Part shown: positions 5,669-54,484 of the stretch, one piece after another | How positions within the stretch are numbered: position 1 is the first letter of the stretch | Layout of the letters: every line of letters starts with the position of its first letter | Origin: Bacillota bacterium | GTDB taxonomy: Bacteria; Bacillota; Clostridia; Acetivibrionales; DUMC01 | Reading direction: 5' to 3' | DNA: 64,000 nucleotides | Assembly (NCBI GenBank): GCA_013314855.1 | Contig: JABUEW010000001.1 | Span: 24,377 to 88,376 of the forward strand | Notes under the pieces: model-generated | Database searches by the model: none | What the model was told of the DNA's origin: nothing | Seen by the model: the letters and a program-made list of their open reading frames with translations, nothing else | Program-made: the position numbers and the translations under genes

Positions 5669-5716
5669 AACCTAACCTATTCCTCCTCTAAATAGAGTGT
5701 TTTTCATTACTATAAT

Positions 5717-10160: not shown

Positions 10161-10189
10161 CCTTTAGCACCTCCAATTTGTAAAAGCTT

Positions 10190-13038: not shown

Positions 13039-13104
13039 TATTTACTAAATTGTAACAAAATATGGGTCCAATCTCTCTTGACAAACGTCTGTTCCCCCCC
13101 ATAA

Positions 13105-14649: not shown

Positions 14650-14835
14650 GTTGCTTAACGTACTTAATAATTAAATCAACTTTTTAAGCTTTAACCCCCC
14701 AAATACAATGGGTTAGCCTTGCTATGCGCTTTTTTCCCTTTACACCTGATTATACACGCAGCATATTCTGTTTTCAATGTCCACTTAATGTATATTGCTG
14801 GATTAATATCCTCTTACTTACACTTTTCTAGTTTA

Positions 14836-19522: not shown

Positions 19523-19644
19523 ATTTATACGGATAGCTTTTTGAATTTCTAACGTTAAATTGTATTTGTAATATAACATAAAATATGTTACAAAACAACG
19601 TTCAATTTATAATTCTACAATCAGCAATTAACATTTTGTTCAAA
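19523..19644 (-). promoter_or_regulatory. Duplicated upstream region P1, including a 45-nt relic of an AraC-gene 3' end (19600..19644)
   Basis: Aligns with 25159..25286. The 45-nt cores match at 44/45. The minus-strand core reads AAA ATG TTA ATT GCT GAT TGT AGA ATT ATA AAT TGA. Confidence 0.7.
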
Positions 19645-19686
19645 AAAACAACGGCAGTGAAAGAACAGAGTTGCGTAGTTAATTTA

Positions 19687-25158: not shown

Positions 25159-25286
25159 ATTTATACAAACAGCTTTTTGAACTGTTAATATTGAATTGCA
25201 TTTATAATATAATATAAAACTAAAACAGGCTTAAAAACAATGTTCAATATATAATTCTACAATCAGCAATTAACATTTTGTTCAAA
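25159..25286 (-). promoter_or_regulatory. Duplicated upstream region P2 (copy of 19523..19644)
   Basis: See P1. The core is 25242..25286. A third, diverged copy of the core (about 82% identity) is the real 3' end of the AraC gene at 25295..25340. Confidence 0.7.
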
Positions 25287-25295
25287 TAATAACTG

Positions 25296-27620: not shown

Positions 27621-27732
27621 GTATTAATACCCCCTCTTTCTAACGTAGTGTTAAACTATTTACGCTCAAATAAATTTTAAAGTCTTTATTTATCAAAGGG
27701 TTAAATGTTTTTTATATAAAAAAGAATAACAC

Positions 27733-29034
27733 CCCCCTGATTTTTTATAGAATTATAATGTAAGGGCAAGAATGACTATTACACCTGCCTAAGGTTGCTG
27801 TTGCCTTTTTTAAGCTTATATATATTCAGATTGTCAAGGAGCATTCCGTTGGAGCAGCTTTTTAGGGTGTCATAGTAGTTCTCATTTTCTTTTTTCTTGT
27901 TTTTCTTTGCTTCTTTCCAAGTGTATTTTTTATACCCTTATCTCTAATGCCTTTGCTGTTCCTGAAATCGTAGCCATATAAAATTCCCTTGGGCTCATGT
28001 AGAATATCGATGAGTGTATCCTGCGTATGTTATATCTGTCTATAAATTCAATCACTTCTCTATATCCCTCTTCGTACTTTTCAAATTTCCACTTTCCAAG
28101 ACATTCATCCTCAAGTATTCTATGAAAAGCTTCTATATGAGCATTTTTATCCGGTGTTTTACAGGGTATCCTCACATGTTCTATATTCAGTTCCTCACAC
28201 CTGCTCTCAAAAGCATGGCTTATAAACTGTAGCCCGTTATCTGTCCGTATTACCGGCTTATCCTCCTTTTCATACAAGTTCCTGCGCATTAATGCCCTCT
28301 ACAACATTATGACAGCATCACTGCCTTCACAGCTTAAGCCTATATGGTAATCAACCACCATCCTGTCATACACATCGATTATTGATAATATGTAGAAAAA
28401 CCTGTCTTCTCCGGCTATCTAACCGTACTTGATGTCCGCTTCCCATAATTGGTTCACAGCTGTTACTATTCGATTCTTCGCAAGCTTTCCTGGATACTTC
28501 GGTTTTATTTCCCTCTGAGGTTTTAGTATTCCAAGTTCTTTACATAACCGGTAACCTTTTTCTTGTTTATTATAAGTTTATATTCCTTTCTTAAAGCTAT
28601 GGTAAGCTTATAACATCCATAGCTTAAGCCGTCTCCTTCACTTAATTCCATGATCCATTCTTTTATTTGTATGTCGCATACTATTCTTCCATCAATGGTA
28701 TATGAATAGCCAGGTATAGGCCTCCCTCCATTTTGTTCCTTTTCCTCACCTCTCTTGGTTCTTTTATTAGGCTTGAATCCTTCTTCAATCCCTTTTTTGT
28801 CATTTTTTTCATTGGCTCTTGTTTTTTTGTACCCGCACCCATCTTGCTACTATTTACTGGCTAACATTATACTTCCTTCCGACAACACTGCAATCCTCAG
28901 TTTCAGTGGCTTCCTTAATGACTTGCTTCTTAAATTCCTCTGAATGTTTCCGTACTCTCATATTTTTTTCCCCTTTGCTTACTTTTTTATTATATAAGCT
29001 TTGGGTCTAATTGTCCAAATAGATTAGGGGGCTT
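27733..29034 (-). mobile_element. Decayed IS3-family element (orfA/orfB with stops and frameshifts); ends approximate
   Basis: orfA starts near 28955 as MRVRKHSEEFKKQVIKEATETEDCSVVGRKYNVSQ*. The orfB pieces read ...NQLWEADIKYG*IAGEDRFFYILSIIDVYDRMVVDYHIG...* and there is an rve-core fragment at 27930..28289 (DNGLQFISHAFESRCEELNIEHVRIPCKTPDKNAHIEAFH). Candidate imperfect terminal repeats are CCCCCCTGATTTTTT (27732) and the reverse complement of AGATTAGGGGG (29031). Confidence 0.6.
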
Positions 29035-29263
29035 ATGGGAAACCTTCTTTGCCTTTTGACTCAAGACTATGAGTAACACCTTTATGTGTCAAATAAAAAT
29101 TATTTTCTTGAGCAACATACTCATTTTCACCTACTGTTATTTTGCCTGTTCCGCTTAGCACGTAAATATAATGGTAGTATTCATGTTTATGAGTCGGTAA
29201 TTTATCTCCTGATACATAACTTTCTTTTGAAAACCAAATTACATCTATGCCGCAATCAAGCAT
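29033..29263 (-). CDS. Small cupin-domain protein, possibly the N-terminal remnant of an AraC-type regulator
   Basis: 76 aa with AGGAG RBS. Has PTHKHEYYHYIYVLSGTG...THKGVTHSL. Its stop codon lies 1-2 nt from the putative IS3 terminus. Confidence 0.4.
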   Translation of the reverse strand: MLDCGIDVIWFSKESYVSGDKLPTHKHEYYHYIYVLSGTGKITVGENEYVAQENNFYLTHKGVTHSLESKGKEGFP

Positions 29264-29312
29264 AAAAACACTCCTATATAGAAAATGTTAACGGTTTTAT
29301 CCCCCTAATACT

Positions 29313-30155
29313 TCACTCTCTTTGAACTAACATCATCCTTTTTCTATGACAGTTACATTCTCCTACACCTTCGCACAAAAGAAAAGCTGGGTCTTTTTTT
29401 AATATAGGTACCAACAATTCTATTAATTTATTTCCATTTACTAATTTGCATAAGGCATTGCCAATATAACCTTCACGTTGAATTTCTTTTATTCCTTTGA
29501 TGTTTTCAATCCTTCCAAAAGCTTTTGAACAGCCGGAAAGTTTTTTGCTTAACGGAATTCTTTCAATACTTCCATCATCTCTTTCCACCAGGTAATAGTC
29601 TCCATAAGTGTCTTTGTTTTTTATATGAAGAAAAGGTAAATCCGCCAGACATTCGGCAACATGTATAGTTGAATTTGCTTCATGTCCGACTCCTATTAGA
29701 AGAACTAAACCCCCATTTTTTGCAAGTTTATGAATAGGTGTATCCTCGCCAAAAGGCGGAGTATACTCATTATGATTTTCTACATACTTTTCAGCTTCTT
29801 TTCCTATGGTAGCCACCGAATGGGTAGGGTGGTCACTTCTGTATGCATCACTTCTTCTCCAGAAAACATCACTTACAAGTCCGGTTTGAGACGAGGTCTT
29901 CTTTTTGTTGTATGGCAATGTTCCTTTATTACCTTCATAACTGTAAGTAAAAGTTGGCATCATTATAAGTCCTTCTTCTCCAACTACATTCAATAGCGCA
30001 TTAATCAAGGTATCAGCTCCACCTTCAACATAACCTATAGATTTTAATGAACAATGAAATATTAATTTATCACCTTTTTTAACACCCATTTTTAAAAGGT
30101 CAGTTATTATCCGTTTTAATCCGATATTATTAACCGTACTGTCTGACTTATCCAA
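29313..30155 (-). CDS. AAC(3)-family aminoglycoside/aminosugar N-acetyltransferase (Antibiotic_NAT)
   Basis: 280 aa, TTG start. LKMGVKKGDKLIFHCSLKSIGYVEGGADTLINALLNVVGEEGLIMMPTFTYS matches the family N-terminal signature. Confidence 0.8.
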   Translation of the reverse strand: MDKSDSTVNNIGLKRIITDLLKMGVKKGDKLIFHCSLKSIGYVEGGADTLINALLNVVGEEGLIMMPTFTYSYEGNKGTLPYNKKKTSSQTGLVSDVFWRRSDAYRSDHPTHSVATIGKEAEKYVENHNEYTPPFGEDTPIHKLAKNGGLVLLIGVGHEANSTIHVAECLADLPFLHIKNKDTYGDYYLVERDDGSIERIPLSKKLSGCSKAFGRIENIKGIKEIQREGYIGNALCKLVNGNKLIELLVPILKKDPAFLLCEGVGECNCHRKRMMLVQRE

Positions 30156-39928: not shown

Positions 39929-40014
39929 ACACTCCTTTTTGAAATTTTCTTTTTTAATACTCCTTAAAAATTATAACATACATATACCAATTTGTAAACT
40001 ATGGTTTTGCAAAC

Positions 40015-40259
40015 GGGCGCATTTTCAAATTTTGAAGAAAATGCTGGAAGTAACATTGCGGAAAGTCTTATAGAGCCTGTTAATCCGACGAGGGATAAGC
40101 AAATCAACTGTATGAGCAAAATAATTACATTAAAATATTATTAAATTCTATTCAAATTATTTTGCGAGTTTGATTTGCCCCGAAGTGAATTTACAGGCTC
40201 TTAAGACTTGGAGCATTTAGTTACTGGAAGCATTTTCTTCATAAAAATAAAATGCACTC
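40015..40259. mobile_element. MITE-like palindromic element, copy A
   Basis: About 243 bp. The two arms are roughly 75% self-complementary. The termini are GGGCGCATTTT... and ...AAAATGCACTC. The element is flanked by a perfect 9-bp direct repeat TTTGCAAAC (40006..40014 and 40260..40268). Confidence 0.8.
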
Positions 40260-40287
40260 TTTGCAAACTTAACAACGCCTGCACTAA

Positions 40288-41520
40288 TCAGCACCTTATT
40301 CTAATAAAGTGTGCCCTGGACTTAACAAAGGGATCCATATATTCTCCACATCTCTCTGTAAAAGAACCAAGTATCAGTCCATCTCTTGATACTTCTCTGC
40401 AACCTCCTGTAGCATAAATAGAATATGGATCATCAACAAGCTCCTCACTTAACGCATAATCCTCCCAGGTCAATCCGTTATCATAACTGACAATACAGCC
40501 AATTCTTTTTCTCTGTTTTGCCACATAGTATAAAGCCTCCTTACCCGGTCGCCTGTCTACGGCAAAAAATCCGTCAAATCCTGCAAGTCTGACTTTATTG
40601 CCACCAAGTTCATGTGCCAATATTTCATGGTCTTTCTTCCCTCTTGCAATATCATACCTTATATAATGCTGTTTCCCATTATAAAAATCATCTTTTGGTA
40701 GTTTAAAATCCGGATGTGGACTCGCCCTGTACATGAAATGCAACTTGCCATTAACTGCAATAAAGTTGGAAAGCCAGGTATTTAAATCAAATTCTTCATC
40801 CAAAGTGATTCTATCACCACCGCCATCTGTATCACTTAAAACCGGAAGCCTTATTTCCGTGCCATCCATGCGCTTCCATGTATAGCCTCCGTCTTCGGAT
40901 TTCATATAGTATATGCTTAAATAATGGAATGTCTTATGCATATTTGTGGTCCAGGCTACGTGCAATACACCGTTTTCATCCATAACCATATGCGGATACT
41001 CAAAGGAAGCTGTTTTACCAATCTCAACTATTTTTGCAGAGTATTTAATATTCCCCTCCACATCGATAGCATGGAAATCGCCGTTGTTAGGTATATAATA
41101 TAACATCCTTCTTTTTTTATCGTAAGCCATGGCAAATTTCCCACCTGCAGTATTCGGAATGGTTATGCAAAAAGGGTTTTTATACTTTTCTGATGCTTTA
41201 AAAATCATAAAACACGAGTTCCATTTCACAAAGTCGGGATATACAAGATACAGGTTATTTTCTTCATCTGTTTCTAATGGAGCAGGGTTTGTGGGATCTA
41301 TACTATCATAAATAACATGGAAAGTGTCTCCCTGGTCAGTGCTTCTTAGAAGTCTCCAATTCTGTGCTGTATACTTTTCATTTCTTGACCTTATATAAGT
41401 AAGAAATATACCGTTTTCATTACTAACAATTTTTTGATTATGGCTCTGAAATGTAGCAAAAGCTGTAGCTTCCTGGTCGAAGCATATTACATCAATTTTT
41501 TTCAATTCACATTTAGACAT
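40288..41520 (-). CDS. BNR/Asp-box repeat protein (sialidase-superfamily beta-propeller)
   Basis: 410 aa with Asp-boxes STDQGDTF, SEDGGYTW and SYDNGLTW. Confidence 0.7.
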   Translation of the reverse strand: MSKCELKKIDVICFDQEATAFATFQSHNQKIVSNENGIFLTYIRSRNEKYTAQNWRLLRSTDQGDTFHVIYDSIDPTNPAPLETDEENNLYLVYPDFVKWNSCFMIFKASEKYKNPFCITIPNTAGGKFAMAYDKKRRMLYYIPNNGDFHAIDVEGNIKYSAKIVEIGKTASFEYPHMVMDENGVLHVAWTTNMHKTFHYLSIYYMKSEDGGYTWKRMDGTEIRLPVLSDTDGGGDRITLDEEFDLNTWLSNFIAVNGKLHFMYRASPHPDFKLPKDDFYNGKQHYIRYDIARGKKDHEILAHELGGNKVRLAGFDGFFAVDRRPGKEALYYVAKQRKRIGCIVSYDNGLTWEDYALSEELVDDPYSIYATGGCREVSRDGLILGSFTERCGEYMDPFVKSRAHFIRIRC

Positions 41521-41624
41521 AAATTATATCCCCTTTTTATTTCAACATCTATCTTACGCTTCATATTATATATTTAAACAGTTCATTTATATATAAAATT
41601 TCTTAACAGGGTTAACTAATTTCC

Positions 41625-42440
41625 CTATATCTCTTGACTTTTTATAGCTTTAATAAAATCATCAACATCATAAACAAAGCCAAAACCTACGGCTATTGTC
41701 CATAAGGCAAGTTCTTTGCCTAAACCTAACCTTGCAGTTTCCTTATTTTCTACCGCAGTGACCGCCTCACGTATAGTTGAGCACATTATTCCATGTCGAT
41801 ACAGGTGCATAAACCCACCGCTCGAAAACTGGATACACCAGTTTATATTGTAGCCTATATAGATTAGATGATTGATGCCATAATGTTTACACAGCTTAAA
41901 AAGCTGTTTTTCATCCAGAACAACTTCTTCATCGCCTTGGGGTTTTTCTTCTTCAGGAAATGCCGATATTTCAGCCATAACCTTATATGATTCAAGGTTG
42001 TGTTTACCGGGGAAGCCATAATCCCTTTTAAATTCCCTTAAACGCTGCAATACCGGATCTTGTTCCACCTGCTCAAAACCGGTGCTTTCGCCTACCAAAT
42101 CTAAAACCTTTTTGTACCCTGCATAATCTTTACAGTACGAACTTCCCGCAGCAACATGGAAGAGTTTCATCCCCGATTCTCTTATTGCTTGTAATAACCC
42201 GGGCATTATATTTTTTCCAACATTATACGCCCTCGGTATATATTCGCATGCCCTGAACACTCCTGGAACCTGTTCCATTGTGCCGTAATTTATTGCATGC
42301 ATAAGCACGACTGCAGTTTTATCCAGGTTTAGCTCCAGGGTCTCTTTTCTCCAGCCGCCATAACCTTCACCAGGTACTTCAAGGGAATAGTCTGCATCAA
42401 ACTGCTGATAATAATATGTTGGAAGTTTTATAATTTTCAT
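41625..42440 (-). CDS. Isochorismatase-like cysteine hydrolase (tentative)
   Basis: 271 aa. KTAVVLMHAINYG and LIYIGYNINWCIQFSSGG resemble the isochorismatase-family strand and Cys motifs. Confidence 0.35.
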   Translation of the reverse strand: MKIIKLPTYYYQQFDADYSLEVPGEGYGGWRKETLELNLDKTAVVLMHAINYGTMEQVPGVFRACEYIPRAYNVGKNIMPGLLQAIRESGMKLFHVAAGSSYCKDYAGYKKVLDLVGESTGFEQVEQDPVLQRLREFKRDYGFPGKHNLESYKVMAEISAFPEEEKPQGDEEVVLDEKQLFKLCKHYGINHLIYIGYNINWCIQFSSGGFMHLYRHGIMCSTIREAVTAVENKETARLGLGKELALWTIAVGFGFVYDVDDFIKAIKSQEI

Positions 42441-42624
42441 GAGTCAAATTCCTCCTCTTTTCTTAAAGTCCTTTAATCAATATTAAGGCTGCCCTGTAAA
42501 TTATTTTCTATTTTAGAGCAGCCCTTAAAGCGTTAACCTAAGCGTCAAGAAATATTTCACCTATATAGGCTGGAGCTTAAATTAACGCAAATGATATTGT
42601 TGCGTAGCAAATTTGCTTCGCAAA

Positions 42625-44193
42625 TTACTTTTTAGACCTTTCATGTTGTGCTTTTACAATGTCCATAATCTTTTCAATACCCATTTCCCGCAGTTTTTTA
42701 CCAAATTGTTCATAATTTTCAAGGGGTTCGTCACCAATTATGAATTTAATCTTCATTTCTTGGAGGTAGGTATCAAGGTCTTTACTTACTTGGCTAACTA
42801 TCCTGTCTTCTTCCTGTGTACGCCTTACATACATCCATGACTGTAATGGTTCTAAATAATTCATTATTTTGTCAATTTCAACCCTGTCATCAGCTAATCG
42901 GTACTTATTTGCTACTTTCATACTTTGCCTGTTGGATATATTAAGCCAGCAGCCTATAGACCATAAAGTATCTTGCGGACTCAACCCGTCAGGATTTTTT
43001 AGTACAAAATCTGTGTACTTGTATTCATTACCTTCAATTTTATACGATAGGTTTTCAATGCCGTAATTGATTAAGTTGAAGCCTTCTTCACTTGCCCATA
43101 CAAAATCAAAGAACTTCATGGCCACTTCCGGTTTTTTGCAGAATTTTGTTATTTTAGCTGCTCCGGTCTGGTAATTAAACTGTTTGTAGAATTTTTGCCT
43201 TCCATAGGGTCCTTCCAGTATTGCTATTGTATATTCCGCATTTGGATCAGAAGCCTTAACCTGGCTGTACAACCAGCTTTTGCTCCATGGATACCAGGTT
43301 ATACCTCCTACTTGATTATTGCTTAGACGTGCTACTAAATTATCATAAGACATATTGATAATTTCCCTGTCAAACACATTTTCCTTCCACATCTTATTGG
43401 CAAACTGCAGATAAAGCTTCCCTCTTTCCTCTAAATAGTCATACTCTACTTCACCATTATCATTTATACTATAGAAGCCCTGAGACATATGCATATGCCA
43501 AATATTTGACAAAAATTCAAAATAATTACTGCTGCAAGCATATACCTCATCTTTCTTGCCATTACCGTTTGCATCCTTTTCCTGGAAAGTCTTTAGAGCT
43601 GCCAGGTATTCTTCAGGAGTTTTCGGCACAGGAATATTCAATTTGTTAAGCCAGTCTTTTCTTATCCAGTTTGCCTCAAGAGAAGGAAAATCATCCAAAA
43701 CATATGGAAACTCATACATCTTGCCGTCCTCAAAGGTCATAAACTTCTTAAGCTCGGGTCTTTCCTTCAGAAGCTTAACAATATTGGGAGTATTATCACC
43801 TATAAGGTGGTCAAAGCTTATTACCAGCCCCCTGTCTATAAGGTCAACAAGATTTCCTCCCATGATTATATCCTCGAGTTGTTGCCCTGCCGCATATTTA
43901 GTGTTAGCTACAGTATGAAATTCAGACGCTGGGAGGACAACCCATTTAATTTTGATATTAAGCCTTTTTTCGATTTCATCTATTACAGGTAGTTCTCCTG
44001 AAGCATAGCTTTTTGGCGTATACCAGTTATCCCATGTAAAAATGCTTAATTCCTCCGGTGGAGTCTTGGTATCTCCTCCTTTATCAACAGCTGTTTTATC
44101 CCCAGCTTTTTCCCCATCCTTCTTGGAACATCCTGTAAATGATAGGGAAAGAATCATAACAAGACATAGTAGAATAACTAAAAGTTTTTTCAT
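42625..44193 (-). CDS. Extracellular solute-binding lipoprotein (ABC importer 2)
   Basis: 522 aa. MKKLLVILLCLVMILSLSFTGCS is a signal peptide with lipobox. Confidence 0.85.
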   Translation of the reverse strand: MKKLLVILLCLVMILSLSFTGCSKKDGEKAGDKTAVDKGGDTKTPPEELSIFTWDNWYTPKSYASGELPVIDEIEKRLNIKIKWVVLPASEFHTVANTKYAAGQQLEDIIMGGNLVDLIDRGLVISFDHLIGDNTPNIVKLLKERPELKKFMTFEDGKMYEFPYVLDDFPSLEANWIRKDWLNKLNIPVPKTPEEYLAALKTFQEKDANGNGKKDEVYACSSNYFEFLSNIWHMHMSQGFYSINDNGEVEYDYLEERGKLYLQFANKMWKENVFDREIINMSYDNLVARLSNNQVGGITWYPWSKSWLYSQVKASDPNAEYTIAILEGPYGRQKFYKQFNYQTGAAKITKFCKKPEVAMKFFDFVWASEEGFNLINYGIENLSYKIEGNEYKYTDFVLKNPDGLSPQDTLWSIGCWLNISNRQSMKVANKYRLADDRVEIDKIMNYLEPLQSWMYVRRTQEEDRIVSQVSKDLDTYLQEMKIKFIIGDEPLENYEQFGKKLREMGIEKIMDIVKAQHERSKK

Positions 44194-44331
44194 GATTTTT
44201 TCATCCTCCTTAAGATTAATAAATTTTAAATTTACGGTTAAATTATCTTGTTACAATTGCTGTGTTCTTTTCACCCCCTTTCAGTTCATATGTACTATTC
44301 CCCCTTTCAGCGATAGCCAAATTATTAATTT

Positions 44332-45204
44332 TTACCCCTTGATTGAACCTATCATAACCCCTTTTACAAAATATTTCTGAAGAAAAGGGTACACACAAAT
44401 GATAGGTAATATTGTAATAATTATTGAAGAATACTTGAGTTGTATACCATACGCTGCCCTTTCGTAACTTGAACCGGGTAAATCTCTTTGTACTTCAGCT
44501 GAAACCTCAATAAGTATACGTCTTAAGTAAATTTGTAATGGATGCTTACTCGCATCTGAAATAAATATCATAGCAGAGAAAAAGCTATTCCAGTGTCCAA
44601 CCGCATGAAAAAGTATTAACACAGCCAGTATAGCTTTAGATAGTGGAAGGTATATGCTTGTTAGTATTTTTAAATCACCTGCCCCATCAATTATTGCCGA
44701 TTCCTCAAGGCTATCTGGTATTGACTGGAAAAATGTCCTAGTAATTATAATATACCATGCGCTTACAGCTCCCGGTATAACTATTGCCCATCTTGTGTTA
44801 TACATCCCAAGCGTTGAAACTAATATATATAGAGGTATTAAACCTCCTCCAAAAAACATTGTAAAGGATATCATTATCATGAAGAAGTTCCTATGTATGA
44901 ACCGCTTTTTAGACAAAGGATATGCTGCAATAACAGTCATTATAACATTTATAGTTGTTCCAACAACTGTATACCAAATTGTATTATAATATGACTGCCA
45001 AAACATCTTATTTCTAAATACAATTTTAAATGATTCCAACGAAAATCCCTTGGGTAAAAGTAATATATTTTGCTTCATTACTTCTTCTACTGAACTTATC
45101 GACATACTAAAAACATATATAAACGGATACAAAGTTATAAAAGCAGCAAAGCTTAGTAAAATATAAATAATTACTTCAATAGCTTTATCAGATAACTTTT
45201 TCAT
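44332..45204 (-). CDS. ABC sugar-importer permease (LplC-like)
   Basis: 290 aa. Has ESAIIDGAGDLKILTSIYLPLSK and a C-terminus KYFVKGVMIGSIKG. Confidence 0.85.
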   Translation of the reverse strand: MKKLSDKAIEVIIYILLSFAAFITLYPFIYVFSMSISSVEEVMKQNILLLPKGFSLESFKIVFRNKMFWQSYYNTIWYTVVGTTINVIMTVIAAYPLSKKRFIHRNFFMIMISFTMFFGGGLIPLYILVSTLGMYNTRWAIVIPGAVSAWYIIITRTFFQSIPDSLEESAIIDGAGDLKILTSIYLPLSKAILAVLILFHAVGHWNSFFSAMIFISDASKHPLQIYLRRILIEVSAEVQRDLPGSSYERAAYGIQLKYSSIIITILPIICVYPFLQKYFVKGVMIGSIKG

Positions 45205-45219
45205 TCTCCTCCTCCATTC

Positions 45220-46188
45220 TTACCATAGAGATATTTCGCTTACCTTTTTACTTATTTTGTTTACTGTTATTAAAAGTATAAAATTCACTACAGAGTTAAA
45301 TAAGCCTACTGCACTGGCAAAGCTGAACTGTGCATTAATAATACCTGCCCTGTAAACATATGTTTGAATAACGTCTGCAACCTCATAAGTTGAAGGGTTA
45401 TACATCAATATTATTTTTTCAAAGCCAACATTCATCATTTGTCCCAGAGATAAGATCAACAGTATAACTATTGTGGGTAATATTGAAGGTATAGATATGT
45501 TTACAATTTTTCGAAATCTTCCGGCCCCATCTATTTCTGCAGCCTCATATAAATTTGGATCTATTCCGGATAATGCCGCTATATATATTATTGAACTAAA
45601 ACCAAAACCTTGCCAAATTCCCGATGCCACGTATATTGTACGGAACCACTTCTTATTCATCATGAAATGGATAGGCTCATACCCTAATTTCTCTAATAAT
45701 ATATTAATAATCCCGCCACTTGGAGATAGAAAATTAACTATCATACCAACTACTATAACAGTAGAAATAAAATATGGAAGATAGCTCGCGGTTTGAACAA
45801 ATCTTTTGAAAAAACCATTTCCGACTTCATTAAGTAATAGTGCAAATATTATGGGTACCGGAAAGCCCCAAATAAGGCTGTAAAAACTAAGCAGAAACGT
45901 ATTTCTTAATAAACGGAAAAAATACACGGATGAAAAAAATTCCTTAAACCACCTAAACCCTACCCAATTTTGAGTTAAAAAATCGTATAAATTTGAAAAA
46001 CCTTTAAAGTCTTTAAAAGCAATTAATATTCCTATCATAGGTAAATAATGAAATATCACATAATATATAATAACAGGTAAAAATATTATAAGCAATTGCT
46101 TGTTTTTCCCAAGTCTTTTAAAATAAGTATCTTTTTGTGTTGCATTAAATTCTTGTACAGATTTTCTTAATGCTATTCTATTTTGCAT
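45220..46188 (-). CDS. ABC sugar-importer permease (LplB-like)
   Basis: 322 aa with EAAEIDGAGRFRKIVNISIPSI. Confidence 0.85.
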   Translation of the reverse strand: MQNRIALRKSVQEFNATQKDTYFKRLGKNKQLLIIFLPVIIYYVIFHYLPMIGILIAFKDFKGFSNLYDFLTQNWVGFRWFKEFFSSVYFFRLLRNTFLLSFYSLIWGFPVPIIFALLLNEVGNGFFKRFVQTASYLPYFISTVIVVGMIVNFLSPSGGIINILLEKLGYEPIHFMMNKKWFRTIYVASGIWQGFGFSSIIYIAALSGIDPNLYEAAEIDGAGRFRKIVNISIPSILPTIVILLILSLGQMMNVGFEKIILMYNPSTYEVADVIQTYVYRAGIINAQFSFASAVGLFNSVVNFILLITVNKISKKVSEISLW

Positions 46189-46361
46189 AATGATGCATCC
46201 TCATCCTTTCCTGTTATCTGGGCAAAAAGAACCCTCCTACGGCTAATGAAAGGCTAATCATACCTATATACCTATTATTAATTCACATCTCAATCATAAT
46301 CATAATATCTTATGGGAAAAATGTAAACATACTATTAATTTTCGGCATACATTTTTTTACT

Positions 46362-48752
46362 TCAGGCCTGTAGTCTCGTTTTTAAGCAGTTGTTCTCCCT
46401 ATATTGAACTGGTGTTTTAAGCTCATACTTTTTAAACACCCTTCTAAATGTAACATCATTTATAAATCCAACTTCTAAAGCTATGTCTTTAATAGTCAGG
46501 TTTTCAACGGCTAATAGCTGTTTTGCCTTTTCTATTCTTTTCTTGTTAAGGTATTCTGAAAAATAAAGGCCTGTATTTTCTCTAAAAAATCTACTCAAAT
46601 AAGAATTTGAAAGGCCAAATTTTGAAGCACAAAGATTTAGGGAAAAATTACTATCAAAACATTTCTTATCTATCTCATCCAGTATGTCTTTAATAAGTGA
46701 TTGTGCAAAACTCTCATTCTTGCTCTTTATTTCTTCACAAATCCCTCTGTACATTTTTTTAATATAATCCATCATTTCTCCAAACGTATTCAACAGCAAA
46801 AGATCCTGCGAAACTATACTGTTGTCCAGGTTAGACAGGTTTAATTCCTGCAAAGCCTTTAAAGCAGTTGCTTGAAGATCATAGAACAAGAATCTCGCAA
46901 TTGCCAAATCCGGATTTTGTTTTTTAAGGTTCTCTTCTATTATACTGTCAAGAATTTCTTCTATTTTATCAAAAGCAGCAGACTTTAAACCTTCTATCAA
47001 AGCAAGCTCCTTATCAAGGGGATAGTAATAATGCAAGTTAGTTTCCCTATTACATATTTCATTATAAGCAATAACACTGCTTTTACCTTTTATAAGTTTG
47101 AAGTTCAAAGCTTTTTGGGCTTCTTCGTATGATTGATTTATCCCTTTAAAAATATTATAAGTGTTTCCTATACCTACAGTAATTACAATATCATACTTGT
47201 CTTCTATTTCTTCCTTGATTTTTCTCAATATCTGGTTTATATTGGGCTGCTTAACTACAAAATCAGAATCTAGCAAAGCAGACGAGTTGTTAATATTCAT
47301 AAGTACTGCTATTCTATAACGTTCCATCTCAACAACATAACTTGTGCATTTCAGGGTAATTAAAACACTTTCCAGCATCTCTTTTATAATCAGAATAATT
47401 TCAGGCATAACACAGTAGTCCTTTTCATTATTTGCTTTATTATAATTCTCCTTTTTATAATACTCTATTTCAAAAATAGAAACTTTATAATAACTGTACG
47501 GTAGAGATATTCCATACTTCAAAAAAATATCTTTCTGGTCTGTGTTGTATTCTACATTTCCCTTCAGTAAATTTATAATAAGATTATTTTTTTGAATATA
47601 GTTATACTTTTGCATTTCAAGCTGCATCAAATTTTTCTCATTTCTCAACTTTTTAATACAATTCTCAATAACTTCAAACTCCGATCTACATTCGTGTTTC
47701 GAATAACTATAATCGTCGTCTTTTAATATTGTAAATATAATTTTTCTTAGTGGGTCAAGAGATTTTCTTGTAACAAGTAGTACCATAATTAATGCAAACA
47801 CTATAGCTGAAATAAATACAGCAGTAAATATTTCCTTGAAGTACCCTGCTTTTTGCGTTATTAAGCTCAATGGTACTACAGCAACATATTCCAACTCATT
47901 TATATCCGATGGTATATGATATATTATATAATCCAGCCCTTCTATTTTATCCCTGAAAACATTAGTACTTCCCGTATATAAGTAACAATTGCTATTACCC
48001 TTAAAGTAAGGCAAATTCCCATGAGATACAACAATTTCATTCTTTTTGTTTAAAATATATATATTAAAATCACCTTTTGAATTAAAACTATTTAATAACT
48101 CAATTATACTGTTTGTTTTGGTAAGAATAATTAATGATGCAGCATAACACTTATTATACTTATACGAAGATGCAATACCCTGGATATATGCCATAGAATC
48201 GTACCTGCGTCCAAGATACGTAACTTTAAGATTCGAAATTATTTGAGAATCTTTATCGTTTTTTTGTAAAACATCTAAATTAAGCATATCCTTGTTTTCA
48301 ATTTCAAATATATTATTAAAAAAGTATTCTGCTTCTTCTTTTCCGGTAGGAGTAAGAATTAAACTCTCATTGTCCAAATACACAAATATTTCATCTATAA
48401 AACTGTTCACACTTTTAAAGGAAGCCAGTTCTTCAAACATAGTCAGAAAGTCTATCATACTAATTCTGCTGTAATCTATGCCTTCTCTCATATGTATTAC
48501 TTTATTAAAAAGCCTGTTTCCGCTCAATTGCATATTTAGCTTGTTAAACTCTTCAAATCTATTATCGATACTATTCTTAATACTGTTGATCAAGGTTAAA
48601 TGAAACTTTTCAGCTTCTTCTTCAATAATTCGGACTGCTGTATAATATATCATTAAACCTATTATGGAGATTGTTATTATGGACAAAGTAAAGTACGCGG
48701 TAAACTGTTTTATGAATGTTTTTTGTCCATACAGCTTTTTATAAAGCATCAT
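46362..48752 (-). CDS. Membrane-anchored AraC-family one-component sensor/regulator 2
   Basis: 796 aa with two TM segments. The C-terminal region reads LCASKFGLSNSYLSRFFRENTGLYFSEYLNKKRIEKAKQLL...FINDVTFRRVFKK. Confidence 0.85.
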   Translation of the reverse strand: MMLYKKLYGQKTFIKQFTAYFTLSIITISIIGLMIYYTAVRIIEEEAEKFHLTLINSIKNSIDNRFEEFNKLNMQLSGNRLFNKVIHMREGIDYSRISMIDFLTMFEELASFKSVNSFIDEIFVYLDNESLILTPTGKEEAEYFFNNIFEIENKDMLNLDVLQKNDKDSQIISNLKVTYLGRRYDSMAYIQGIASSYKYNKCYAASLIILTKTNSIIELLNSFNSKGDFNIYILNKKNEIVVSHGNLPYFKGNSNCYLYTGSTNVFRDKIEGLDYIIYHIPSDINELEYVAVVPLSLITQKAGYFKEIFTAVFISAIVFALIMVLLVTRKSLDPLRKIIFTILKDDDYSYSKHECRSEFEVIENCIKKLRNEKNLMQLEMQKYNYIQKNNLIINLLKGNVEYNTDQKDIFLKYGISLPYSYYKVSIFEIEYYKKENYNKANNEKDYCVMPEIILIIKEMLESVLITLKCTSYVVEMERYRIAVLMNINNSSALLDSDFVVKQPNINQILRKIKEEIEDKYDIVITVGIGNTYNIFKGINQSYEEAQKALNFKLIKGKSSVIAYNEICNRETNLHYYYPLDKELALIEGLKSAAFDKIEEILDSIIEENLKKQNPDLAIARFLFYDLQATALKALQELNLSNLDNSIVSQDLLLLNTFGEMMDYIKKMYRGICEEIKSKNESFAQSLIKDILDEIDKKCFDSNFSLNLCASKFGLSNSYLSRFFRENTGLYFSEYLNKKRIEKAKQLLAVENLTIKDIALEVGFINDVTFRRVFKKYELKTPVQYRENNCLKTRLQA

Positions 48753-48970
48753 AAATACCCCCTGAACACCCCTCTGGTCCCCACTTCCAAAAACAAATAA
48801 AACACATTAGTACGTTATTAACATATCTAATATCAAATTTTTTAAAAACTATTAGCTATACTACTTTTTATCACCTTACTTTTATAATAATATGTTAGTT
48901 TCTATCTGTAAACATATAAAAATTTCCAACATACAATATTTTTATTAAGGCCTATTTAACTGTTCCTTTC

Positions 48971-49750
48971 TTAAATAATATTTACTAATTTAAGAAAATT
49001 AATGCTTAATATTTTTACCTTATCCTCCTCACTTATATTCGAAAGTACAACATTTCCAAGCTGGTGGCAAGGGTCAAAAAATGGAAAGTCGCTACCAAAT
49101 ACTATTTTATCAGCACCAAGAAAATCAACTGTTTTTTCAAAAGCTCCCAAATAGCATCCCGATCCGGCTGTATCCAACCATACATTATCTAAATCCCGTA
49201 TTGCTTTTAAGATTTCGAGTTCCTGATTTCCATCCCATGCAGACCCATAATGGGCTTGTATAAATTTTATATTATAGTATTTGTCTGCAATAGAACGTAA
49301 GTTTTGTGCAGAACCCCATGAGTGGTTCATTATCACCAGTTTTCTTTGGTGTGCAAATTCATATACAGGTATATACTTCTTGCTGTCTGCCGGACAGTCA
49401 CTTAAGTCAGGATGTAGTTTGATTGCAGTCATATTGAGTTTATCAAAACACCTTTCAAGTTCAGGTATTACATCATTTTGTTCAAAAGGATTGACGCACG
49501 CATAGCCTAAAATTCTTCCTTTTGATGATTTTATTGCATCAGCTACCATATCATTTCCATACTTATAATCCACTTCCAGCCCTGCGAGAGAGGAAACACA
49601 AATTTTTTCAATTCCTACCCTGTCCATGGTTTTTAATATACCTTCAGCACTACTGTCAGGAATGTTAAACAACTTATAATACCCCAGGTGTCCATGAGCA
49701 TCTATTATCCTATACTTTCCTATAATTTCCCGTATTTTATTTGGCATCAA
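48971..49750 (-). CDS. Amidohydro_2-type metal-dependent hydrolase
   Basis: 259 aa with RIIDAHGHLG and IVFGSDFPF. It overlaps the upstream gene by 14 nt. Confidence 0.75.
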   Translation of the reverse strand: MMPNKIREIIGKYRIIDAHGHLGYYKLFNIPDSSAEGILKTMDRVGIEKICVSSLAGLEVDYKYGNDMVADAIKSSKGRILGYACVNPFEQNDVIPELERCFDKLNMTAIKLHPDLSDCPADSKKYIPVYEFAHQRKLVIMNHSWGSAQNLRSIADKYYNIKFIQAHYGSAWDGNQELEILKAIRDLDNVWLDTAGSGCYLGAFEKTVDFLGADKIVFGSDFPFFDPCHQLGNVVLSNISEEDKVKILSINFLKLVNII

Positions 49751-50513
49751 AATTAACCCCCTCCAGTAAATTCATGAGGTTTTTCCCAGCTATCATGTCT
49801 CTTTCATCTTCTTTAATATTTGCCAGACATACCATTGCAATGGGAGGGTTTGGACTGTAAACAGGCATCCCTGTGCCGAAAATCAATCTACCGGCGCCAA
49901 AGTTCCGCACCATCTTCTCTATCCCGTTATTAACAATGTAATATGATGTTTCTAGATACAGGCTATCAAATTTTTTAAACAGAGGATATATATATCTGTC
50001 AGCCTTAACACCCATCCTTACTAATACGAAAGGTAATGCCGGGAAGGTTTCACAAAAGTTTTTGATTTGTTCCCAGTTTATTTCTTCAGACCAATGTCTT
50101 ATTGAAAAATCTATAAACACTGGAATTTTCCTTAATTCAAGTTCAGAAAACAGGTCTTCCCACACCCAGGTATAAAGGGATATTCCATGAAAAGCAGGGA
50201 ATATCCTTACTGCCCTTATATTATTATCAGCGAGGTACTTTACGAATTCTTCCGGAGAAAGAAATTCTCCCGTATGATGGGGCATTGCTACAGCACATGG
50301 GATCAACCTGTCATAGTTTTTAATTTCTTTAAGAAGCATGTCGTTTCCTGTTTGTATATGGCTGTATTTAGCTAATGAGCCAAAAACAACGCATCGTGAT
50401 ATTCCACTTTTATCCATAAAACTAATAAGATCATTTGCTGTGTAAAAACATATACCAGTATTTTTTTTCCATTGTCCCAACATACAATTACTATCAATAA
50501 ACTCCATTGGCAT
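49737..50513 (-). CDS. Amidohydro_2-like protein lacking the N-terminal HxH
   Basis: 258 aa. It has the same length and C-terminal LIFGTGMP as family members, but EFIDSNCMLG replaces D.H.H. Confidence 0.5.
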   Translation of the reverse strand: MPMEFIDSNCMLGQWKKNTGICFYTANDLISFMDKSGISRCVVFGSLAKYSHIQTGNDMLLKEIKNYDRLIPCAVAMPHHTGEFLSPEEFVKYLADNNIRAVRIFPAFHGISLYTWVWEDLFSELELRKIPVFIDFSIRHWSEEINWEQIKNFCETFPALPFVLVRMGVKADRYIYPLFKKFDSLYLETSYYIVNNGIEKMVRNFGAGRLIFGTGMPVYSPNPPIAMVCLANIKEDERDMIAGKNLMNLLEGVNFDAK

Positions 50514-50518
50514 AGTGC

Positions 50519-52549
50519 TTATTCATCTCCATTTTTTTCGTATTCATCGAATTCATTGTGAACATGATCTATTCCTTTCTTTAACTTCCTTTCTTTAACC
50601 CACCTGTCTATATCGGGTAAATCAAAGTATTTAAGCATACCGGGGAGTATAATGCTCATGATATCGTACCTATCATAATAACGTGATTTTACCAAACTTG
50701 TAAAACTTCCTATACCTTCAACTACTTCAAGATCTTTAATGCTTTCATTAAGTGCTGCTGCAAGCTGAGCATATAAACCCTGACGTCCATAAGCATATAA
50801 ATGTACATCCCCTTTTTTTATCCCCGGGAACTGCTGTACTACTTCAATAGCTCTCAATACATCGTATGTCCTTAAGGTTGCCATGCTATCACCCAACCAC
50901 ATGAGATCATTAACCAATTTGAATATAACCCCGTAAAAATCAAGGGGCGGCATAGAACGGAAGGAATTAGGTAAAATGTTTCCTACTCCTGATGTATCAA
51001 GAACCATTACAGCTCTTCTTAAGTTACAAGTGTCTCTTATCCATTTTATATGAGGTTGTATTTGGGTAGTACCTCCATCCCATACAGCAATAGTTGCAGG
51101 AAGATCCTCTCCAATAAATTGATAATCTCTAAACAAAACTCCATAGTTAAATATACCCTCTTGTGTCCACCACATGCTTGCCTGCACAACCAATTCATCA
51201 ACTTGGGTAACCATTAAATGACGACAATTATATTCACATGGTTTCCTGTTATAATAGACTTTTTCCTTTAGCCATTTTATGGCCATTTTTCTGCGTTGAT
51301 CTTCAGGTATAGTTTCCCGCTGCTTCTCTATTTCATCAAGGCGGTTACAGTTCCCATGGTATATAAACCTTGCACCCTGCATTTCACCGCGGACCTGACC
51401 TGAGTTTGTACACCATAAACGGGAAGACTCTATTGGTCTTATTTCTTCATCTTCCTGTAATATAGGTAAAGTTTTTCTGCTTAGAAGATGCTTTGAAAAA
51501 AATTCTGCCGCTTTTTTGGCCATGGATTGAGTATACTTATGCGGTGAATTATCTTCAAACAATTCTATATTATCAATTTTCCCGTACATCTCCCAGAACC
51601 GTTTAGCTCTTTCAACTGTCCACCTGGTCCCTTCAATAGGAAAATAGTCGGATGTTGCCGCTAACACAAGAACAGGTTTTGGTGCCATGGAAATAATCAT
51701 GTCTTCGTGATCAAAACCGTATACAGACATTCCAGGCCATATGTGTTCCGCGTCAGCAGGCCCCCCTGTATATAAATGAGCTATTCTGCTAGTTATAAAC
51801 GTTGCAGGAGCTGCTGCAGCAATTCTTGGATCACATATCATCATGAGAGCAGTTTGTGTCCCTCCTCCTGAATTACCAGTAACTCCTATCTTGTCGGGAT
51901 CAACTTCAGAGCGTGTACAAAGGTAGTCTATCCCCCTCATGGCATCGTGCAAAAAATAACGGGCACTGGCATCTCCTACAGGCCAACATTGTATCCCCGC
52001 ATAATCATGCTCATAAATTCCCCATCTTACTGTTGTGCTATTAATAGATTTTTCGTAGTAGCTGAACCGTTCACCCTGACCTATTGGATCTTGTGCCAAC
52101 ACCACTAATCCTGCACGTACTAAGTATTGGCATACAATCTGATATTCATCTTCGTGTTTTGCCCGTTCATGATGCCCGCAAAGAAAAAGCACTGCACCTA
52201 CTGGATATTCAACTCCATCCGGTACATAAAGATTTGCTGTTACAAATACCTTCGGCCGAGACTCAAATATCACTTTTTCTATTCTGAAACCATTACAATG
52301 TATGACGCCTGTTATTTGCGGGTTAAGAGGTGTGTCACTAGGAGGAAGGCCTCCCAGTGACTCTATAAGCTTTTCTCGTATAAAAGCTTTTCGTTTCTCA
52401 AGCTCATCTATGTTATTGATTGCATCCCGGATGGCATTACCTGTACTGGCTGCTTCTTCAGTCAGTTTATATATAACAGACCGTAACTGGTCTTTTACAT
52501 CATAAAACCCGATACTAGGTGAATACTGTTCCAGCTCCTGTACTGTCAT
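50519..52549 (-). CDS. Alpha/beta-fold hydrolase (acetyl-esterase / S9-like) with a C-terminal extension
   Basis: 676 aa. The nucleophile elbow is GVTGNSGGGTQTA, with CGHHERAKHE and DPIGQGER upstream. Confidence 0.6.
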   Translation of the reverse strand: MTVQELEQYSPSIGFYDVKDQLRSVIYKLTEEAASTGNAIRDAINNIDELEKRKAFIREKLIESLGGLPPSDTPLNPQITGVIHCNGFRIEKVIFESRPKVFVTANLYVPDGVEYPVGAVLFLCGHHERAKHEDEYQIVCQYLVRAGLVVLAQDPIGQGERFSYYEKSINSTTVRWGIYEHDYAGIQCWPVGDASARYFLHDAMRGIDYLCTRSEVDPDKIGVTGNSGGGTQTALMMICDPRIAAAAPATFITSRIAHLYTGGPADAEHIWPGMSVYGFDHEDMIISMAPKPVLVLAATSDYFPIEGTRWTVERAKRFWEMYGKIDNIELFEDNSPHKYTQSMAKKAAEFFSKHLLSRKTLPILQEDEEIRPIESSRLWCTNSGQVRGEMQGARFIYHGNCNRLDEIEKQRETIPEDQRRKMAIKWLKEKVYYNRKPCEYNCRHLMVTQVDELVVQASMWWTQEGIFNYGVLFRDYQFIGEDLPATIAVWDGGTTQIQPHIKWIRDTCNLRRAVMVLDTSGVGNILPNSFRSMPPLDFYGVIFKLVNDLMWLGDSMATLRTYDVLRAIEVVQQFPGIKKGDVHLYAYGRQGLYAQLAAALNESIKDLEVVEGIGSFTSLVKSRYYDRYDIMSIILPGMLKYFDLPDIDRWVKERKLKKGIDHVHNEFDEYEKNGDE

Positions 52550-52594
52550 TTTTCTTTCTCTCCTCTTTTAAGCAAATTCGCTTCGATCCCGGAA

Positions 52595-53914
52595 CTATAT
52601 CAGGTTTATACTCCTTCCGCTTCTAGCTACATCTTGGGTTTCAACACCATACTTCTTCTCATATTCCTTTAATTCATCTACATTCCTTACAACCTTGTGG
52701 TAGGCTTCAATATACTGGTTTAAAAGCTCCCTGCATGGCTTTTCAAATCTTGGAGCCATCATAAATGCATGCTCTCTAAGATATTCTGTATTGGGAAGGC
52801 TTACCTTCTCAGTAGGATATTCCACTTTTACATGAGGACATCTCCCGGGGCAACCCTTTCCATAAGGTGTCTTTTCAAGAAAGAGAGGCGCTTCATGCAG
52901 GCGTCCGTATCCTATTGCTCCCACTACCACGCCTTCGGCTTTTAATGCTTTTAGGAAAGTCATTAATGACACTCCTTCAAGTTTAGTCTCATCATACCTG
53001 GCATAGTGATAACTATGCTGTCTTACGCCTCCCGGATATGTTCTCTGAGGGATAATACATTCTATATCCTTTATACCTTCCTCCAGATACCTTGCATTTT
53101 CTGACCTTATTGCATTTTTCTCATCAAGATATTTTAATTCGGTATTGACTATTGCTATACCTAAAGGATGTACCCTGTGCTTAAATCCTAATGACGTAGT
53201 ATACTTCCTGTATTCCGAGTCTTCCGGAAGTCCGCTTACCCGTTCATAATGTCCTAACGCTACTGCCCTTTCGTAATATTCATGGTTATTGGTTACCAGC
53301 ACGCCTCCTTCACCGGCTGCCAGGGTCTTGCTCCCCTGCAAGCTGTAACATCCTACATCTCCAATTATGCCTACTTTCTTACCCTTCCACATTGTACCAT
53401 GAGCATGGGCACAATCTTCAATTACACGCAAGTTGTTTTCCTTTGCTATTTTCATTATCTCATCCATGTTTGCCGGATTACCCCATACATGGACTACCAT
53501 TATCGCCTTTGTCCTGGGAGTTATTTTCCTCTTTATATCTTCAGGGTCAATACAATGAGTGTCAATGTCTACATCACAAAACACAGGTATCCCATGGGAT
53601 GCAACAATAGGAGCTACAGTAAATATCCAGGTAAAGGAAGGTACTATTACTTCATCTCCAGGTCCAACCCCTACCGCAAACAGCGCTTCGTGGAGAGATG
53701 ATGTCCCGCTGTTTACAGCTAATGAATATTTTGCCCCGATGTAGTCTCCAAAGTTTTTCTCAAATTCCCTTACAACCGGGGATGTGGAAATTTCACCTTT
53801 TCTTAATAGTTCTACTACTGCATTTATTGCCTCTTCAGATACCAGCGGCAGGCTTGCTGTTGATGAATCAATTTTCACTGCCTTTTCTCCGTTTAAAATT
53901 GCTAACTTAGCCAT
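52595..53914 (-). CDS. DegT/DnrJ/EryC1/StrS-family aminotransferase
   Basis: Start moved to ATG 53914 (GAGGAG 8 nt upstream; MAKLAILNG...). Has AVNSGTSSLHEAL, PGDEVIVPSFTW and YSLQGSKTLAAGEGGV. Confidence 0.8.
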   Translation of the reverse strand: MAKLAILNGEKAVKIDSSTASLPLVSEEAINAVVELLRKGEISTSPVVREFEKNFGDYIGAKYSLAVNSGTSSLHEALFAVGVGPGDEVIVPSFTWIFTVAPIVASHGIPVFCDVDIDTHCIDPEDIKRKITPRTKAIMVVHVWGNPANMDEIMKIAKENNLRVIEDCAHAHGTMWKGKKVGIIGDVGCYSLQGSKTLAAGEGGVLVTNNHEYYERAVALGHYERVSGLPEDSEYRKYTTSLGFKHRVHPLGIAIVNTELKYLDEKNAIRSENARYLEEGIKDIECIIPQRTYPGGVRQHSYHYARYDETKLEGVSLMTFLKALKAEGVVVGAIGYGRLHEAPLFLEKTPYGKGCPGRCPHVKVEYPTEKVSLPNTEYLREHAFMMAPRFEKPCRELLNQYIEAYHKVVRNVDELKEYEKKYGVETQDVARSGRSINLI

Positions 53915-54136
53915 TTTCAACACTCCTCGTTAGTAGAATAACTTTTTATCGTATGACTTTTTAATACCTACTCAATAAACTTAATAATTTAATGCTAATC
54001 TCATAATACTACATCCAGCAATGTACTGTAAACAAACATTAATTTTATACATACATTATTTTCATTCATAATTTTCATTCATACTTTTATTTGTTTTAAA
54101 TCAAATACAAGCTTAATTAAGCAAGTTTAGGACAAT

Positions 54137-54379
54137 GTGCATTTTATTTTTATGAAAAAAATGCTTCCGGTAACTAAATGCTCCAAGTCTTAAGAGCCTG
54201 TAAATTCACTTCGGGGCAAATCAAACTCGCAAAATAATTTGAATAGAATTTAATAATATTTCAATGTAATTATTTTGCTCATACAGTTGATTTGCTTACC
54301 CCTCGTCGGATTAACAGGCTCTATAAGACTTTCCGCAATGTTACTTCCGGCATTTTCTTCAAAATTTAAAAATGCGCCC
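54137..54379. mobile_element. MITE-like palindromic element, copy B (inverted relative to copy A)
   Basis: Its reverse complement differs from 40015..40257 at 6 of 243 positions. It is flanked by AGGACAAT (54129..54136) and ACGACAAT (54380..54387). Confidence 0.8.
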
Positions 54380-54484
54380 ACGACAATTGTGATTATTGCA
54401 AAAATTAATATTATATATTATACTTGTCTTAAATTAATGTTTTTGGTTTAACATTTTTAGTTGTATTAAATAAGAGGTGCAAAT

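Follow-up and report, generated by a model that had tools for sequence, protein, structure and literature searches.

The question raised by this locus is whether two near-identical inverted repeats mark the borders of a gene module that can be inverted or moved as a unit. Both repeats lie in a 64,000-nucleotide stretch of DNA (the window, meaning the whole stretch analysed) from the metagenome-assembled genome (MAG) of a Bacillota bacterium of the class Clostridia (GCA_013314855.1, contig JABUEW010000001.1, positions 24,377 to 88,376). A previous sequence-only reading had proposed that these repeats, here called copies A and B, bracket a self-contained 13.9-kb module of 11 genes, that homologous recombination between them would invert it, and that each long hairpin could insulate or terminate transcription at the module borders. 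The results obtained favor another answer. With a probability of about 0.85, the repeats belong to an undescribed family of transposable elements of the miniature inverted-repeat type (MITEs), copies A and B are two separate or local-hop insertions, and their bracketing of the intervening genes is incidental.

The pair itself was just as it had been described. Positions 40015-40257 and the reverse complement of positions 54137-54379 aligned without gaps over 243 columns, with 237 matches (97.5% identity). The six differences were found at element positions 12, 31, 81, 118, 211, and 223, and the longest uninterrupted identical stretch was 92 bp. The inter-arm distance was 13,879 nt, and a repeat scan of the 64-kb window detected copies A and B as the sole inverted pair of at least 40 nt. 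Compared in the direct orientation, they shared only 39% identity, indicating that the pair is truly inverted, although each copy is nearly palindromic. Positions 31 and 211 (40045 and 40225 in copy A, 54349 and 54169 in copy B) carry the same change, CTGGAAG in copy A versus CCGGAAG in copy B, in a motif present once per arm. These two positions are not base-pairing partners, and the parallel change could be a coincidence or the result of deamination at methylated CCGG.

The source sample, SRR6186653, is an Illumina metagenome from a 2.8-km-deep Siberian aquifer, and its Logan assembly, which is Illumina-only, also contains the flanking proteins of the window. In the source study, Illumina contigs were joined by MinION reads (npScarf) and polished with Pilon (PMC7509429). 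This mode of construction, together with short-read contigs that break precisely at both copies, would fit an artefact of MAG assembly or scaffolding, such as a collapsed repeat placed twice. Against this, the Illumina-only assembly enters the element from all four flanks. The bracketed block forms there a separate 13,958-bp contig, and contigs L026, L002, L020, and L003 (L numbers are our handles for fetched loci) terminate within the element at all four junctions. The block contig and its two neighbours each reach 28-47 nt into the element from unique flanks, and their ends reproduce the copy-specific bases at positions 12, 31, 211, and 223. The presence of copy-specific bases at all four junctions in an independent assembly indicates that the repeat is not a scaffolding artefact. 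Since a site-specific duplication is also found at each copy, as described below, an artefact is scarcely credible.

The element copies explain why short-read assemblies break exactly at both block ends. The block contig has element right ends on both sides and both outer contigs have element left ends, so that a k-mer graph is unable to fix the orientation of the block, and spanning reads or target-site duplications (TSDs) are needed. In the deposited MAG, it was long-read scaffolding that set the orientation of the 13.9-kb segment, and the matched TSDs lend this orientation independent support.

Target-site duplications and insertion history

The terminal inverted repeats (TIRs) of the family are GGGCGCATTTT(C) and (G)AAAATGCGCCC, conserved in every complete copy. 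Copy A starts with GGGCGCATTTT and ends with AAAATGCACTC, which is degenerate with respect to the family consensus AAAATGCGCCC; a derived GCAC in the right end is common to copies A and B. Copy A was found 30 nt 3' of the stop codon of the BNR gene, close to and upstream of the -35 of the promoter of the C45/AAT operon, and copy B was found between the divergent promoters of the DegT operon and the ROK regulator gene, both placements having been read correctly from the sequence.

TSDs of 8-10 bp abut the ends of four of the six complete copies: copy A (9 bp), copy B (8 bp, one mismatch), L009 (9 bp), and L011 (10 bp). When the left and right flanks of the six complete copies were cross-paired, none of the 30 pairings gave an exact repeat of at least 4 nt. 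As each copy has its own TSD, copies A and B arrived separately. Inverting positions 40258-54136 in silico left both copies with unmatched flanks. Since an inversion would split the matched TSDs, the present orientation is that of insertion time, unless the segment has since been inverted an even number of times. Moreover, no outer duplication was found around the pair: the outer flanks TTTGCAAAC and ACGACAAT do not match, indicating that the 14.4-kb unit was not inserted as a composite transposon.

Both window copies are of type 1, one of three subfamilies described below. Among the further type-1 copies, L012 alone has a right arm, and private changes were counted against it and against the left arms of four more. 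By this count there are two in copy A and four in copy B, and one derived change, in the right terminus, is common to both. This single shared site weakly suggests that copies A and B may be sister copies, for example through a local hop.

A dispersed family of hairpin elements

Family members were found via an exact core 20-mer of the element. This 20-mer matched a single GTDB genome (an uncultured Clostridiaceae MAG, where it sits at the end of a contig) and 13 JGI metagenome contigs, mostly from one metagenome and many of them at contig ends. Neither three viral-contig scans nor blastn against plasmid and phage collections gave a match to the core 20-mer or the element. Counting the window, about 16 distinct insertion sites were obtained (window, L001, L004-L016, L027). 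All family copies have differing flanks, are essentially intergenic, and lie in both orientations relative to neighbouring genes, the complete ones being about 235-260 bp in length. The three subfamilies have common termini and core and differ in a subterminal block of ~25 nt, changed concordantly in both arms.

The family was also detected elsewhere in the source sample. L027, a second contig of this sample, has a further copy at its end and also a 36-nt remnant made up of two termini. L013, a 3-kb contig among the metagenome matches, is bounded by two copies 3 kb apart. The Ca-ATPase gene of L013 and that of L027 are 98% identical in protein, with nearly identical flanking DNA, and in both contigs a type-2 copy lies downstream of this gene. 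Upstream of it, L013 has a type-1 element and L027 has the 36-nt remnant, with identical flanks. This comparison indicates that the family is multi-copy in the genome of the window and polymorphic between near-identical genomes. The remnant, at about 3705-3740 of L027, reads GGGGCACATTTTCTTCAAACTTCCGAAAATGCAACC, that is, two termini without interior, and its L013 counterpart lies on the reverse strand at about 1-94. It differs at three positions from the corresponding part of the full L013 copy; such differences despite identical flanks indicate that the L027 remnant is not a simple deletion.

A comparison with an empty copy A site was possible in L017, and it is approximate since this relative is distant (68% protein identity, for BNR). 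The gene order of L017 is DegT, AraC regulator, two permeases, solute-binding protein (SBP), 269-aa protein, BNR, and C45/AAT, and BNR is followed directly by C45/AAT across a 197-bp spacer without trace of the element. The window spacer, once the element and one TSD are removed, aligns to that of L017, the conserved C45 promoter included. The order of genes is thus continuous across the presumed border of the module. For copy B, the orthologous DegT/ROK spacer was not found among ROK relatives at 80% and 64% identity, which have other upstream neighbours. In the relative with the 80% identical ROK (L024), an IS unrelated to the element, with a 479-aa DDE transposase (weak IS240-type match), is present upstream of ROK (476-1915), and two Logan contigs (the starts of L021 and L023) stop 52 bp short of the ROK start. 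The stretch ahead of the ROK regulator thus seems to be a site of recurrent landing or rearrangement.

A solo terminus, GGGCGCATTTTC, was seen at 668-700 of L005, followed by CATAGGCGTAAACTTAACCC. The latter closely resembles ATAGGCGTAAACTTAAGCC, the right-end flank of the complete L005 copy (2281-2516), which lies 1.6 kb away on the other strand. Either another repeat was targeted by the element or a local rearrangement took place.

That each repeat is a long hairpin was confirmed by folding. Each window copy folds over its whole length into one long imperfect hairpin on either strand (free energy, dG, about -98 kcal/mol), with z-scores of -10.7 and -11.5 on the two strands against dinucleotide shuffles. 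The consensus hairpin has 75 pairs, and 97.3% of its cells are paired across the three subfamilies; helix 1, of 10 pairs, has 95% of cells paired in the complete copies. Changes on both sides were observed in 12 hairpin pairs versus 1-3 in controls with partners slid by 1-3 columns. Selection on the hairpin would account for these concordant arm changes. Close to the ends, a common need for transposase binding accounts for them equally well, and elsewhere in the element they fit repair between palindrome arms. A strand-specific RNA signal (G-U pairs in excess of A-C mismatches) was considered and dropped, because the two strands fold equally well and only six sequences were available. Rfam, at gathering and permissive thresholds, gave no family for the element, and a known RNA family was rejected, the low-score matches to miRNA models being meaningless and due to the long hairpin. 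The element has no conserved open reading frame (ORF), the only ORFs being of at most 51 aa and extending into the flanks.

MITEs are recognized by a length below 500 bp, by TIRs, by direct repeats around young copies, by their location in AT-rich intergenic DNA, and by stable stem-loops (PMC10969869). The element described here is short and non-coding, has TIRs and individual TSDs, occurs in dispersed copies including within the same genome, and shows presence/absence polymorphism. We found no described Clostridial MITE of this kind in the literature. Several points weigh against the MITE assignment. No autonomous insertion sequence (IS) with matching termini was found in the window, the 27 fetched loci, or the viral, plasmid, and phage collections, and transposition is inferred and not observed. 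In addition, two of the six complete copies (L012 and L005) have no recognizable TSD, which is expected of older or rearranged copies (PMC10969869), and where TSDs are present their length varies from 8 to 10 bp and their offset from the right terminus by 2 nt. The pattern of a conserved core with a variable subterminal part is partly an ascertainment effect of the core 20-mer search, and the copies seen in the source genome or sample amount to at least three full ones and one remnant.

Within the window and the 27 fetched loci, no GGGCGCATTTT terminus was located beside a transposase, and a terminus search returned only the MITE copies, the solo L005 terminus, and the second L013 copy. In the window, neither the DDE_Tnp_1 gene (13105-14649) nor the rve fragment (27930-28289) has GGGCGCATTTT termini. 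The IS4-like transposase of the window was rejected as a partner, as it is bounded by a different 15-bp inverted repeat. L015, which diverges in mid-element, was rejected as a full-length IS: its element (2947-3075) is a half copy, with the left arm only up to the loop, and abuts the 3' end of an MGS-like (methylglyoxal synthase-type) housekeeping gene.

According to the scenario we propose, the element would be moved in trans by a DDE transposase making staggered cuts ~9 bp apart, as the TSDs of 8-10 bp suggest. Separate events would have placed copy A between BNR and C45 and copy B in the divergent DegT/ROK spacer, one copy possibly being a local hop of the other in view of the shared derived GCAC right terminus. 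Their inverted orientation and 13.9-kb spacing would then be incidental. The pair, which breaks short-read assemblies, may serve as a substrate for rare RecA-dependent inversion, and would be neither a programmed switch nor a composite transposon nor a module boundary.

Table 1. Coordinates of the elements, their target-site duplications, and neighbouring features in the window
Feature	Position	Strand	Basis and remarks
Putative MITE copy A (type 1)	40015..40259	+	Pair alignment; both junctions confirmed in the Illumina-only assembly
Putative MITE copy B (type 1), inverted orientation	54137..54379	-	Pair alignment; both junctions confirmed in the Illumina-only assembly
Copy A left TSD, TTTGCAAAC	40006..40014	.	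Perfect 9/9 match to 40260-40268
Copy A right TSD, TTTGCAAAC	40260..40268	.	Match to 40006-40014
Copy B inner TSD, AGGACAAT (+ strand), ATTGTCCT (element orientation)	54129..54136	.	7/8 match to 54380-54387
Copy B outer TSD, ACGACAAT (+ strand), ATTGTCGT (element orientation)	54380..54387	.	One mismatch to 54129-54136
Sigma-70-like promoter of the C45/AAT operon	39970..39998	-	TTTACA-17-TGnTATAAT, 11/12; conserved in L017
Candidate DegT operon promoter	54003..54032	-	TTTACA-18-TATTAT, consensus match only; inside the bracketed segment
Candidate ROK promoter	54396..54424	+	TTGCAA-17-TATACT, consensus match only; outside the element and the segment
Bracketed block, 10 co-directional genes	40288..53914	-	ORF/Pfam; bystander cargo, not part of the element

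Alternative readings of the pair

The proposal that the repeats are a substrate for homologous recombination holds in principle, given 243 bp at 97.5% identity with a run of 92 identical bp. Such a run meets the usual length needs of RecA recombination, and a rare RecA-dependent inversion between the copies is possible. That an inversion takes place is undemonstrated, and the TSDs show no net inversion. It is quite improbable that the 13.9-kb block is a recombination-driven invertible segment whose two orientations coexist in the population or between strains. Besides the inverted orientation and the identity of the arms, this reading could draw on the complete copy L012, whose missing TSD could reflect recombination between copies, and on a precedent, inversions associated with MITEs having been documented for the Correia elements of Neisseria gonorrhoeae (PMC3454330). 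What speaks against it is that both copies keep matched TSDs, which an odd number of inversions would split, that all 10 genes point the same way as nearly every other gene of the window, and that GC skew is continuous at the borders. An inversion would turn these ten genes against the prevailing gene orientation. Furthermore, the deposited orientation comes from MinION scaffolding of Illumina contigs (PMC7509429), and a close strain that has this locus, with which to compare it, was not found. No recombinase or invertase was detected in the window by Pfam scans of all ORFs of at least 150 aa. As the candidate DegT promoter is within the segment and those of C45 and ROK are beyond it (Table 1), an inversion would switch no promoter-gene link. 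As judged from the sequence, nothing points to a programmed switch, and the expression logic would be unchanged by inversion.

A composite transposon or mobile island, in which the two elements and the intervening genes moved as a unit, is more doubtful still. Copies of a mobile element do flank a block that contains a regulator, a partial transporter, and enzymes. Contrary to what such a unit would leave, there is no duplication at the outer flanks and each element has its own TSD; the elements are non-coding, and no transposase lies in or next to the block. In L017, the order AraC, permeases, SBP, 269-aa protein, BNR, C45 crosses the copy A border without an element. In addition, the GC content of the block is like that of its surroundings, and paralogous gene sets are present on both sides.

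The element might also be kept, besides or instead of being selfish DNA, for a role as a cis-regulatory RNA hairpin, acting in transcript-end formation, RNase III processing, or as an insulator. This would agree with a very stable hairpin preserved by both-side changes in 12 pairs across subfamilies, and with intergenic copies, copy A being 30 nt past a stop codon and immediately ahead of the promoter of the next operon. Read-through from BNR would transcribe copy A as a hairpin with arms of ~110 nt, which by analogy with known elements could be an RNase III target. Correia elements are RNase III targets (PMC10969869), and for Correia and ERIC MITEs cleavage by RNase III or RNase E and effects on how stable neighbouring mRNAs are have been described (PMC10969869, PMC2649163). 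However, no U-tract follows the hairpin on either strand, the flanks being GTTTGCAAAACC and ACGACAATTG, and neither a canonical terminator nor an internal promoter was detected in copies A and B. A weak internal stem of 5 pairs, on the strand of copy A that is not transcribed, was the only match to the terminator consensus. Copy B, between divergent promoters, is crossed by no known or predicted transcript. Copies lie in both orientations relative to neighbouring genes, both strands fold with equal energy, and the element-free relative has the same operon layout. Moreover, a shared need for transposase binding or repair between palindrome arms would likewise be expected to give concordant arm changes. 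Taken together, an RNA role is unlikely.

A further reading combines selection on full palindromy, with copies that uncouple sugar operons as RNase III targets or insulators, and inverted pairs that give low-level heterogeneity in the orientation of operon blocks in the aquifer. The both-side changes include inner helices 6 and 9, 50-110 nt from the ends, and this reading takes them to lie beyond any usual transposase-binding site. We consider it improbable.

Altogether, the interpretation of the locus as a purpose-built invertible or mobile catabolic module is removed. In its place, a MITE family undescribed so far is defined for uncultured Clostridia-like Firmicutes by its termini, TSD length, and three subfamilies. 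This definition is useful for repeat masking, strain typing, and the search for the transposase, and its practical value is modest.

Gene neighbourhood and related elements

The claim that the repeats delimit a self-contained module was not supported, in view of the dispersed family, the individual TSDs, the L017 gene order, and the similar genes on both sides. The block can be called self-contained only loosely. Between the repeats we counted 10 co-directional genes and not 11. In the direction of transcription these encode DegT, a 676-aa alpha/beta-hydrolase-like protein, two Amidohydro_2 proteins, a 796-aa AraC-type regulator, two ABC permeases, an SBP, a 271-aa protein, and a BNR_4 protein. 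The 271-aa protein had been labelled isochorismatase-like, and it has no Pfam family even at E<=0.01. Likewise, the importer was said to be complete, and with the regulator, the SBP, and the two permeases no ABC ATPase was found in the block. The ATG start of DegT at 53914 was correct. For C45, placed at 39928, a start at the TTG at 39922 is more likely, no other version being on record as a called gene.

The window as a whole is a run of similar amino-sugar/oligosaccharide gene sets, almost all on the minus strand, that continues on both sides of the block. They encode DegT, GFO_IDH_MocA, Amidohydro_2, polysaccharide deacetylase, GH42-like, and C45/AAT proteins, AraC regulators, and CUT1-type transporters. 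Neither GC content nor skew shows a break at the two block borders, and the block composition differs in relatives.

Other repeats and mobile-element traces were noted in the window. A tandem paralogous duplication (3599-6886 versus 8088-11380, repeat families D1-D4), with copies about 4.5 kb apart and 71-75% identical in DNA, has in each unit a GH42-like protein of ~690 aa and a transglutaminase-like protein of ~390 aa. A 69-nt intergenic motif is present three times (19579-19647, 25221-25289, and 25273-25341; 64-88% identity), upstream of a 662-aa gene and of the gene for a 774-aa AraC regulator, and it may be a shared operator/promoter sequence of the paralogous modules. At 12931-14870, a region has the appearance of an IS4/IS5-type IS. 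It encodes a 514-aa DDE_Tnp_1 transposase (13105-14649) on the plus strand, against nearly all genes of the window, and has the perfect 15-bp inverted repeat GTATGAATTCGAAAA at 12931-12945 and 14856-14870, termini that are unrelated to the MITE. The adjacent Amidohydro_2 ORF (15016-15588, 190 aa) matches only positions 1-210 of the 289 of the profile and may, from this partial match, be truncated. Finally, a 1.7-kb stretch of low GC (0.27) without a long ORF (27620-29313) contains a 119-aa rve-type (IS3-like) integrase core fragment (27930-28289) and a 76-aa cupin/AraC_binding fragment (29033-29263), and probably represents the remains of an IS and of a disrupted regulator.

Among known systems, composite transposons and invertons resemble this locus in that a segment is bounded by inverted repeat copies. 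In composite transposons, the flanking IS encode transposase and one duplication encloses the whole unit, neither of which is present here, and invertons have short inverted repeats, a nearby invertase, and usually a direction-dependent promoter, none of which is present here. ERIC/RU of enterobacteria and RUP of Streptococcus pneumoniae are imperfect palindromes between genes, about 100-130 bp long; they are transcribed along with the genes beside them and can alter the stability of mRNA. RUP is presumed to be mobilized in trans by an IS transposase. The element described here is an intergenic imperfect palindrome as well, but it is about twice as long, differs in sequence, and belongs to uncultured Clostridia-like Firmicutes of subsurface and other anaerobic metagenomes.

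The Correia elements (CREE) of Neisseria have a length of about 100-155 bp, a TA target duplication, different TIRs, promoters, and an IHF site, and to our knowledge they are confined to Neisseria. In contrast, the duplication found here is of 8-10 bp and no promoter was detected. Alike are the small size, the intergenic location, and the hairpin (PMC3454330, PMC2649163, PMC10969869). CREE are also found at inversion breakpoints and are RNase III substrates (PMC3454330, PMC2649163, PMC10969869), which makes them the best precedent for what the sequence-only reading had proposed. Membership of the element in CREE, ERIC, or RUP was rejected on the basis of the missing Rfam match, a TSD of 8-10 bp and not TA, and the different hosts, with no direct comparison of consensus sequences.

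The closest likeness is to prokaryotic MITEs in general (PMC10969869, PMC3184786). As in these, the element is below 500 bp, has TIRs, has direct repeats in young copies, and has no coding capacity; its copies are dispersed in AT-rich intergenic DNA, form a stable stem-loop, and break short-read assemblies. Unlike these, the whole 243 bp and not only short TIRs make up one hairpin, and the subfamilies differ by swapped subterminal blocks that are still complementary between the arms.

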